Below are positions 1 through 9,321 of a stretch of 35,878 nucleotides of DNA, one piece after another; within the stretch, counting starts at the first letter, position 1; each line of letters begins with the position of its first letter. The position numbers were made by a program, and so were the translations under genes. Origin of the DNA: a virus (lineage: Duplodnaviria; Heunggongvirae; Uroviricota; Caudoviricetes); IMG/VR virus record IMGVR_UViG_2684622775_000005, one strand, 5' to 3'. The notes under the pieces were generated by a model. That model was not told the DNA's origin. It worked only from the letters and a program-made list of their open reading frames with translations, and ran no database searches.

Positions 1-318
1 ATGAAAAAGATAGCTGCTATATCATTAATTAGTATTTTTATTATGTCTGGTTGTGCTGTGCATAATGATGAGACAAGTATCGGTAAATTTGGTCTTGCAT
101 ATAAAAGTAATATTCAGCGTAAACTCGATAACCAATACTACACCGAAGCCGAAGCTTCTTTAGCCAGGGGCAGAATATCTGGTGCAGAAAATATAGTAAA
201 AAATGATGCAGCCCATTTCTGTGTTACTCAGGGCAAAAAAATGCAGATAGTTGACCTGAAGACAGAAGGTGCAGGATTACATGGCGTCGCTCGTCTGACA
301 TTCAAATGTGGAGAGTGA
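1..318 (+). CDS. small predicted lipoprotein, host-side flank of attL
   Basis: Complete 105-aa ORF; N-terminal hydrophobic signal ending in lipobox-like IMSGC; AT-rich relative to the prophage backbone. Function unknown. Confidence 0.45.
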   Translation: MKKIAAISLISIFIMSGCAVHNDETSIGKFGLAYKSNIQRKLDNQYYTEAEASLARGRISGAENIVKNDAAHFCVTQGKKMQIVDLKTEGAGLHGVARLTFKCGE

Positions 319-382
319 GAATATTTTTTGGTAAGCGTCAAACATGCGCGTTCTGGTTGTGCTTAGCCGGAACCTGTGCGAG

Positions 383-415
383 CACGATGCCGTTACGTGA
401 AAGGCATCGTGCTAT
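383..415. repeat. perfect 11-bp inverted repeat (agcacgatgcc / ggcatcgtgct) with 11-nt loop
   Basis: Read directly in sequence; no flanking T-tract on either strand, so not an obvious intrinsic terminator. Confidence 0.4.
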
Positions 416-476
416 GAAGGGAGATTCTATCGATGTGGTCAATGGAAGACGGTGACCAGGGATAGGGCTTATGCAT

Positions 477-503
477 AAAAAATAAGCCCGTGTAAGGGAG
501 ATT
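477..503. other. attL core (27 bp)
   Basis: AAAAAATAAGCCCGTGTAAGGGAGATT, identical to the copy at 34346-34372; lies just outside the int 3' end. Confidence 0.85.
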
Positions 504-582: not shown

Positions 583-1596
583 TTACTCTACTGTGGACAC
601 TGTGTGGACACTCTCGGCCTCAGTACCACCTCTTAGCGGATTAAGAGAAATGGCGTCCTGAAGGTACTCTGGCGCAAAATGAGCGTAAACCATCGTTTGC
701 TCAATCCGCGTGTGACCTAGTATCCGTTGTAGCGTGATAATACTTCCTCCATTAATCATGAAATGAGTGGCAAAGCTGTGCCTTAGTGCATGTGTGGCTT
801 GCCCCATTGGCAAATCCGGTTTTATTGCTTTCATTGTTCGTCTGAAGCGAGGGTAATCAGCATCAGGGAATAAAAAACCTCGTTTGTTATCCGCGATCAT
901 TTTGGCAACAGACTCTGAGATCGGGACGGTGCGTGGTTTGTTTGTTTTCGTTTTAACAAACGTGACGCGGTTATGGATGATATTTTCTGCTTTCAAACGA
1001 GCTGCTTCTCCCCAACGTGCTCCTGTACTCAGGCAAAGAATCGCAATCTTTTTATTGTCGCCGTCAAGTGCTGCAAGCAGTAAGGCAATTTCTTCCTGTG
1101 TGAGATAGCCTGTTTCTGGTTTTTCCTCCTTAAGCCTCTTTGTCCCTCTGATAGGGTGCTCACCAAAGAATAACTCCGCTTCAATCAGGGCTGTAAACAT
1201 GCCGCTAATACATGTTAAATCACGATTGATACTCGAAGGTTTAATACCCTGACTTCTTCGGGTGGCGCAGTACTGGCTGATAAGGGATTTCGTGATTTGA
1301 AATGCGCATGGGTCATTCGTTATTTTTGTGAAGATTTCAATTTTTCCAAGATTAGATTTCCCATGCTCTTCGTGTTTACCCTTTAAATCCCACCAGATCT
1401 GTGTCAGTTCCGACAGACGTCGTTTGTCTGTTGGTTTTGATAGCCATTCTTTATTGTGGTGGTTGTACAACGTGTATTTCTCGAAAGCGACAGCTTCGCT
1501 TTTCTTATCAAACTTCCTACGGATGCGTTTTCCATTACGTCCAGTAGGGCGGATGTCCACTTCATATCGACCATCATCGAGTTTTTTGATTGCCAT
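583..1596 (-). CDS. int: tyrosine integrase (P2 Int-like, 337 aa)
   Basis: 337-aa ORF next to attL; C-terminal HxxR...Y tyrosine-recombinase signature region (ATHALRHSFATHF...ITLQRILGHTRIEQTMVYAH); matches recalled P2 Int length and N-terminus. Confidence 0.95.
   Translation of the reverse strand: MAIKKLDDGRYEVDIRPTGRNGKRIRRKFDKKSEAVAFEKYTLYNHHNKEWLSKPTDKRRLSELTQIWWDLKGKHEEHGKSNLGKIEIFTKITNDPCAFQITKSLISQYCATRRSQGIKPSSINRDLTCISGMFTALIEAELFFGEHPIRGTKRLKEEKPETGYLTQEEIALLLAALDGDNKKIAILCLSTGARWGEAARLKAENIIHNRVTFVKTKTNKPRTVPISESVAKMIADNKRGFLFPDADYPRFRRTMKAIKPDLPMGQATHALRHSFATHFMINGGSIITLQRILGHTRIEQTMVYAHFAPEYLQDAISLNPLRGGTEAESVHTVSTVE
593..611. repeat. two direct repeats TGTGGACAC (P' arm, inside int 3' end); candidate Int arm-type sites
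   Basis: Seen directly; a similar TGTGG(T/A)C direct-repeat pair is found in the opposite arm at 34287-34308. Confidence 0.5.
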
Positions 1597-8878: not shown

Positions 8879-9164
8879 TTTATCCCTCTTTTTATTCTTT
8901 TTATATTTAGCCTTAAGTGTTCGAGGTTGCCTTCCTCAACGATAGAGATCTAACCTAACTTTTTGATTTATTCAAGAGAATTTAGTGAGTTATATGTAAA
9001 GATGTGGATGCTTAGCTATGTGGTTGGGGGTTATTTCAGTATGAATTCATTTGATGCATCATTTTGCATGTACCTGTTAGGCATTTTCTAACTTTGCAGT
9101 GTCAGAACTGGCGTACTTTAGGCCATTCATGCAAGTGCATTAAAACCGCCCCATTAAGCGGGCG

Positions 9165-9183
9165 GGCGAGGCGGGGAAAGCAC
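9165..9183. other. cos (cohesive-end site)
   Basis: GGCGAGGCGGGGAAAGCAC matches the recalled 19-nt P2 cohesive end; located between the cargo island and Q as in P2. Confidence 0.8.
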
Positions 9184-9321
9184 TGCGCGCTGACGGTGGT
9201 GCTGATTGTATTTTTTCAGCGTCTCAGCGCGTCGTGACGGCGCTTAGTCTGCCCGTTGAGGCGTTGTGTGTCTGCGGGGTGTTTTGTGCGGTGGTGAGCG
9301 TGTGAGGGGGATGACGGGGTG

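Follow-up and report, generated by a model that had tools for sequence, protein, structure and literature searches.

The DNA analysed here, a stretch of 35,878 nt referred to below as the window, is a segment of the Escherichia coli chromosome comprising, in order, the yegR gene, a spacer of 158 nt, an attachment (att) core, a complete P2-like prophage, a second core and yegQ. The small lipoprotein gene yegR (positions 1–318, plus strand) was assigned from its ORF and the YegR annotation. The attL core of the resident prophage (477–503) is a 27-nt sequence that is repeated exactly in the attR core (34346–34372) and is identical to the attP core of P2. It is followed by the P' arm (504–612), which carries two TGTGGACA arm repeats at 592–599 and 603–610 and corresponds to the P' arm features annotated for Cox and Int in the P2 record, and by int (583–1596, minus strand), an ORF of 337 aa in the same position as int in the P2 record. 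The 19-nt cohesive end at 9165–9183 matches that of P2 (GGCGAGGCGGGGAAAGCAC) exactly, and this cos region (9127–9184) served as the reference for the cos-flank relic described below. At the right end of the prophage, ogr (34025–34243, plus strand; 97 % identical to the P2 ogr region) is separated by the ogr terminator from a P arm of the functional type (34283–34345), with arm repeats at 34287–34294 and 34298–34305 and an IHF site at approximately 34313–34346. The terminator of the cyaR sRNA gene (34349–34434, minus strand; Rfam RF00112, 100.7 bits, E = 3.5e-19) constitutes the att core, and the integration site is therefore the cyaR site; yegQ lies beyond the attR core on the minus strand. 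Published occupants of this site are Wphi2, the K-12 ‘ogr-D'’ and ‘P2*B’, and it is empty in strain Crooks (PMC3032704). In the late region of the resident prophage, three overlapping copies of a 220-nt sequence (22732–23215; 132-nt spacing, 84–85 % identity) were also observed, and these are probably a repeat within a structural gene.

The original prediction was that the sequence left of the attL core resembles the phage P arm, and our analysis bears this out. A repeat search identified window 425–464 and phage 34278–34317 as a direct repeat of 40 nt with 75 % ungapped identity, in which 15 identical nt are followed by 7 diverged nt and a further 8 identical nt: the 15-mer TCGATGTGGTCAATG at 430–444 is identical to phage 34283–34297, and the 8-mer GTGACCAG at 452–459 to phage 34305–34312. 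Local alignment of the two regions gave a score of 22, compared with 7.3±1.3 (maximum 13.5) for 2000 dinucleotide-preserving shuffles, none of which reached 22, and the empty-site allele of E. coli HS gave the same score (22) against the P arm. The strings on which the prediction was based are present in the sequence, except that one had been quoted with an A missing and actually reads AATGGAAGACGG.

The relic P arm (425–476, plus strand) contains, as predicted, one intact arm-type repeat, TGTGGTCA at 434–441, corresponding to repeat 1 of the P arm (34287–34294). The position of repeat 2 (444–451) is occupied by GGAAGACG, compared with TGTGGACG in the phage, and the conserved TGG is gone; the consensus for P2-type arm repeats is tgTGGaCa (PMC3448106). 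The part shared by host and phage is exactly the Int ‘P arm’ footprint annotated in the P2 record (gtcgatgtggtcaatgtgtggacgtgac), and the part that is incomplete in the host copy is the annotated IHF site next to it. The shared 15-mer begins 47 nt before the core in the host but 63 nt before it in the phage, a difference of 16 nt and not the approximately 30 bp first estimated. The corresponding deletion in E. coli takes out the TTTCAATTTGTTG part of the IHF site, a part that is kept in the divergent Escherichia lineage L019 (see below). The relic thus shares with the P arm of P2 attP its repeat 1, the flanking 8-mer, the orientation and the side of the core, since it abuts the 27-nt core on the ogr side just as 34283–34345 abuts 34346–34372. 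It differs from a P2-type P arm, in which two tgTGGaCa direct repeats lie about one helical turn apart with an IHF site between them and the core, in that its second repeat is degenerate and its IHF site 16 nt short; nor is there an ogr terminator before the arm. P2-type P arms are bound by the N-terminal domain of P2 Int. With one intact repeat, the second destroyed, the IHF site truncated and the spacing altered, the relic is predicted to be incapable of assembling an Int–IHF complex, and it is probably inert. The final 10 nt of the att core recur as AAGGGAGATT 3 nt upstream of the relic arm (417–426, plus strand). The score of this match was reached by 23 of 3000 shuffles in the window and by 5 of 3000 in L041, where it is 11 nt long; E. 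coli HS has no such match. At this borderline significance the 10-mer may represent a second decayed core, and possibly a further generation of occupancy.

The sequence is not confined to lysogens. Window 300–503 was present at a coverage of at least 80 % in 5376 of 5426 complete E. coli genomes, and the relic arm together with the core (425–503) in 5403 of them. The relic and core run into cyaR in 4206 genomes, in which the site is either empty or holds only a short remnant that the search tool bridges, and into a P2-type P' arm, as in the window, in 817; the site of E. coli HS is empty and retains the relic. As it is found in so many genomes, unoccupied sites included, the relic is not specific to the history of one strain: it is the normal ‘bacterial arm’ of this attB and not a scar of the recent history of this strain. 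Comparison with the empty locus, proposed in the original prediction, thus places the sequence at unoccupied sites, but it has also brought out a wider similarity to P2 arms.

A number of variants and records of this region were noted in passing. A 175-nt segment directly after yegR (1127–1300 in L046, which is E. coli H105, and 2819–2993 in L041) occurs in a minority of E. coli and in L019 and is absent from the window, HS and K-12, and so constitutes an indel polymorphism within the interval. L041 was considered as an outgroup and rejected, since its yegQ is 97.8 % identical and it is an E. coli sequence with assembly frameshifts; it documents only the 175-nt indel. In E. coli E308 (L003, approximately 2571–2656), yegR and about 70 nt of the spacer, up to window position ~369, are fused directly to part of the baseplate J gene from a P2-like prophage; the fusion is another product of ongoing erosion, and has removed the relic arm and attL. 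Two records from the phage collection, AY639599.1 (‘Phage TP’) and ON470606.1 (vB_EcoM-720R8), include the host flank (yegR, spacer and relic arm), and the former appears to represent not a phage genome but an ogr remnant locus of the K-12 type.

The relic arm proved to be one end of a more extensive fossil. When one genome per species was searched with a pattern from the 3' end of cyaR, 19 loci were recovered, from E. coli, E. ruysiae, Shigella, Kluyvera, Enterobacter and one genome labelled Vagococcus. The exact pattern is unmatched by E. albertii, E. fergusonii, Salmonella and Citrobacter, and estimates of age and ancestral state rest on Kluyvera and on L019, the one non-coli Escherichia lineage recovered. 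L019 is labelled E. coli, yet its yegQ and yegS are 92.4 % and 85 % identical, respectively, to those of E. coli, and its spacer has no megablast match in the 5426 E. coli genomes. The distance from the start of yegS to the core is 73–78 nt in three Kluyvera species (L010, L013 and L014) and in an enterobacterial-looking contig (L012), but 874–882 nt in E. coli and approximately 1105 nt in L019; an interval of some 0.8–1.1 kb is therefore absent from the orthologous Kluyvera locus, which has a short spacing of the ancestral type. The contig L012 is labelled Vagococcus sp. and carries enterobacterial yegS, cyaR and yegQ, and is likely to be contamination or a mislabelled public record.

The left boundary of the interval lies approximately 86 nt from the start of yegS, where ATAAAAAGTCAGTTCAAGTATGGAGGATT is followed by CAGTGGTTACCACCAGGAGCTTGCAATGG; the Kluyvera core lies 74 nt from the start of yegS. 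In E. coli HS (L001, approximately 881–940) the boundary aligns with the P2 core and the start of the P' arm with a score of 21.5 (shuffles 9.0±1.3, 0 of 2000 reaching the score), and in L019 the score of the corresponding alignment was reached by 10 of 2000 shuffles; L041 has an equivalent sequence as well. In a multiple alignment at this point Kluyvera runs into cyaR and Escherichia into P'-like sequence. Judged from these alignments, the boundary is a decayed attL, consisting of a degenerate core and about the first 30 nt of a P' arm, situated beyond the left edge of the window. The search for further P2-derived fragments beyond that edge, suggested in the original prediction, was therefore successful: a decayed core and P' arm are found upstream of yegS. 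Direct repeats of the core accordingly stand at both ends of the inserted DNA, decayed near yegS and intact at cyaR. The composition of the interval is also atypical, yegR having a GC content of 36.5 % and the AT-rich DNA 37 %, compared with 50–54 % for the flanking yegS and yegQ. No remnant of a phage protein was detected when all ORFs of the prophage were compared with the interval by tblastn, and neither ogr nor D lies between yegR and the relic arm in the window, the ogr and D of the window being those of the intact resident prophage. Unrelated DNA lies beside the core in other Kluyvera and Enterobacter loci, which identifies the 3' end of cyaR as a general integration hot spot. Two copies of the core 1.9 kb apart, one at cyaR and the other degenerate with four mismatches, in a record labelled Enterobacter hormaechei B56 (L006; positions 499 and 2398) point to a small island at this site.

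Between yegR and the relic arm, window 323–380 (plus strand) is a remnant of the cos-proximal flank at the right end of a 186/P2-like genome, as indicated by BLAST and by alignment to phage 186. Its alignment with the last ~110 nt of phage 186 gave a score of 28 (shuffles 9.4±1.4; 0 of 2000 reached the score). The homology is longer in L019 (approximately 781–900, minus strand), where about 115 nt align with phage 186 with a score of 46.5, and where alignment with the window's own cos region (9127–9184) gave a score of 28 over 58 ungapped nt with 74 % identity, running through the decayed cos site. BLAST matches of the cos-flank relics fall at the extreme right end of 186, SW9, SEN1, PSP3, EtG and 186-like Yersinia phages. 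The host spacer of the window gave a non-significant score of 8 against the cos flank of the window's own prophage, and the E. coli cos-flank relic is recognizable only against 186-type right ends and through L019. The arm repeats of the fossil are thus of the P2 type and its cos flank is closest to 186-type right ends, a combination that requires a mosaic ancestor. The relics of the P' arm, the cos flank and the P arm are collinear, all on the plus strand and in the order attL–cos–attR. Between the cos-flank and arm relics lies a hairpin, read from the sequence, with a perfect 11-bp stem (AGCACGATGCC/GGCATCGTGCT; 381–413, plus strand) and no T-run after it; the predicted fold of 300–476 has a z score of −3.4. 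The hairpin occupies the aligned position of the cos-adjacent or ogr terminator hairpin, with weak similarity. In the P arm of L019 the IHF half is kept (GGGCGTAACCAGAAACAAATCTTTTAATTCAATTGGTTACGT; score 26, 0 of 2000 shuffles) and the repeat half is more decayed; as E. coli has kept repeat 1 and L019 the IHF half, their common ancestor had a full-length arm.

The sole intact ORF within the fossil interval, between the decayed attL and the live core, is yegR. The protein (PF27694) has 83 detectable relatives, mostly from Escherichia, and its distant homologues (47–81 % identity) lie in unrelated chromosomal or IS-rich contexts. The phage collection yielded no homologue, near cos in a live P2-like phage or elsewhere, apart from the records that include host flank; the equivalent position is occupied by orf97 in 186 and by old in P2. 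The low GC content of yegR, together with its place between att boundaries and immediately upstream of the cos flank, fits a prophage cargo gene, which is its probable origin.

Taken together, the homologies indicate that, very probably, an ancestor of Escherichia harboured an ancient P2-like prophage at the 3' end of cyaR and that the stretch left of the attL core is the P arm of that prophage in eroded form. The claim of the original prediction that the site was occupied earlier and still holds a relic arm of a P2-like element is thereby upheld, through the match to the Int footprint, the phage-borne nature of the arm module (see below) and the wider P2-derived relics. The history that we infer is as follows. 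A P2-like phage would have integrated at the cyaR terminator in the Escherichia ancestor, and would then have lost its early region, together with the whole stretch between cos and the ogr terminator, through internal deletions. The remnant of approximately 0.8–1.1 kb would have consisted of the decayed attL, AT-rich DNA with yegR, ~60–110 nt of cos flank, the P arm and the old attR core. It is possible to speculate that one of the deletions was microhomology-mediated, between the G+C-rich hairpins adjacent to cos and at the terminator, which are apparently fused in L019. The old attL core would have decayed as it had no function, and the old attR core would have survived because it serves as the cyaR terminator. 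Later P2-like phages, including that of the window, would have integrated into the surviving core, each new attL thus having the structure relic P arm/core/P' arm. Comparable deletions are seen at the present day in K-12, in which a partial core is joined to D', and in E308, in the junction of window ~369 to the baseplate J fragment.

An alternative explanation is that the relic has been kept as a functional element, its intact repeat binding a P2-type Int and aiding integration or excision at locI, such that attL would be a partial attP. Repeat 1 and the 8-mer GTGACCAG are identical to those of the modern P arm, the relic 15-mer is constant in all good-quality E. coli alleles examined, and the arm is somewhat better preserved (33 of 41 aligned columns) than the cos (~74 %) and attL (~69 %) relics. 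However, the E. coli alleles are so alike overall that the invariance of the 15-mer carries little weight, the arm-repeat part is further decayed in L019, and the E. coli copy itself has lost the conserved TGG of repeat 2, part of the IHF site and 16 nt of the spacing to the core. We consider such a function unlikely. A wider form of this proposal, that the repeat, 47 nt from the core, recruits P2-type Int and that yegR is a domesticated cargo gene of a P2 right end that has become fixed in Escherichia, seems to us equally doubtful. Excision of P2 is notoriously poor. Were Int recruited in this way, locI would be a hybrid, in part attP-like site and attL a pseudo-attP, and this might contribute to the site preference of P2 or to its poor excision.

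The view that an ancient prophage left the arm has also to be set against a more recent event, in which an earlier P2-like prophage in the lineage of this strain left the arm much as ogr-D' was left in K-12. Remnants of the K-12 type do exist at the locus, as do erosion products such as that of E308, but the distribution of the relic among complete E. coli genomes, empty sites included, refutes this explanation, as do its occurrence in decayed form in a non-coli Escherichia and the fact that K-12 possesses the relic in addition to ogr-D'; we regard it as highly improbable. The order in K-12 is relic, partial core fused to D', ogrK, near-intact P arm, core and cyaR. The relic predates ogr-D' of K-12 and forms a separate element. 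The original prediction likened the relic to this remnant; the comparison is apt inasmuch as a comparable remnant lies at the same locus, but the relic is older and distinct, K-12 carries both, and the relic is nearly universal in E. coli. The K-12 element (‘cryptic prophage PR-X’, ogrK/yegZ) has the same polarity, and it too has had its left part deleted and has kept its right end beside cyaR. PR-X, which occurs only in K-12-like strains, still contains ogr, a fragment of D and a near-intact P arm, whereas no phage gene is left in the relic. In MG1655, PR-X (2167183–2167811) spans only the region from the core to yegZ; the relic and yegR lie outside it, the relic being to its left.

An origin in an ancient prophage also presupposes that the sequence passed from phage to host. 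Phages that carry flanking host DNA after aberrant excision are known from the gal and bio transducing derivatives of lambda, and by the same process an ancestor of P2 could have captured the host B arm. However, the module consisting of the ogr terminator, two arm repeats and IHF site is common to Wphi, fiAA91-ss and pro483, phages with unrelated cores and integration sites, and as far as the IHF site the arms of pro483 and P2 are identical, so the arm is phage-borne and the direction of transfer was from phage to host. The repeats of the module agree both with the P' arm repeats and with the consensus for the family; in Kluyvera, the orthologous locus has no host copy of the arm. As capture of host DNA would in addition leave the P', core and cos relics of the host interval unexplained, we consider it very unlikely indeed. 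Chance resemblance can be dismissed for practical purposes. Although the exact matches are short (15 nt and 8 nt), none of the 2000 dinucleotide shuffles reached the alignment score (z ~11). The host and phage copies also agree in strand and in their placement relative to the core, and in L019 the similarity carries on into the IHF region.

Integration hot spots in tRNA and sRNA genes harbour grounded or cryptic prophages and arrays of decayed att repeats, and a cryptic prophage remnant at an att site of this type is a known kind of element, the younger remnant at the cyaR locus being a textbook case. The fossil resembles such elements in that direct repeats of the core bound AT-rich acquired DNA at the 3' end of a small RNA gene, and in that different insertions are found at the cyaR site in Kluyvera and Enterobacter. 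It differs from typical cryptic prophages in its extreme erosion, only cis-acting sites (att arms and cos flank) and one small cargo-like ORF being left, and in that the remnant is now the ‘bacterial’ arm of the classic P2 attachment site. We found no mention of a P-arm-like B arm at locI, or of yegR as a phage remnant, in the accessible full-text literature, the primary locI papers lying outside that search. The older layer, that is, the locI B arm as a relic P arm and the position of yegR within decayed att boundaries, was thus not found described, although it may have been noticed before.

The finding has a number of implications. For annotation, the ‘PR-X’ of K-12 covers only the younger layer at this locus, and programs that call prophage boundaries from the similarity of att flanks could be misled by relics of this kind. 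For yegR, a gene of unknown function, it provides a probable origin as prophage cargo with defined att boundaries. The locus also offers a natural series of alleles with which the effect of the bacterial-side arm on recombination by Int could be studied, E. coli having repeat 1 without the IHF site, L019 the IHF site without the repeats, and Kluyvera neither. Finally, the textbook bacterial arm of the preferred P2 site (locI, the cyaR terminator) would itself be phage-derived, and the locus would record at least two successive generations of occupancy by P2-like phages, and three in K-12.
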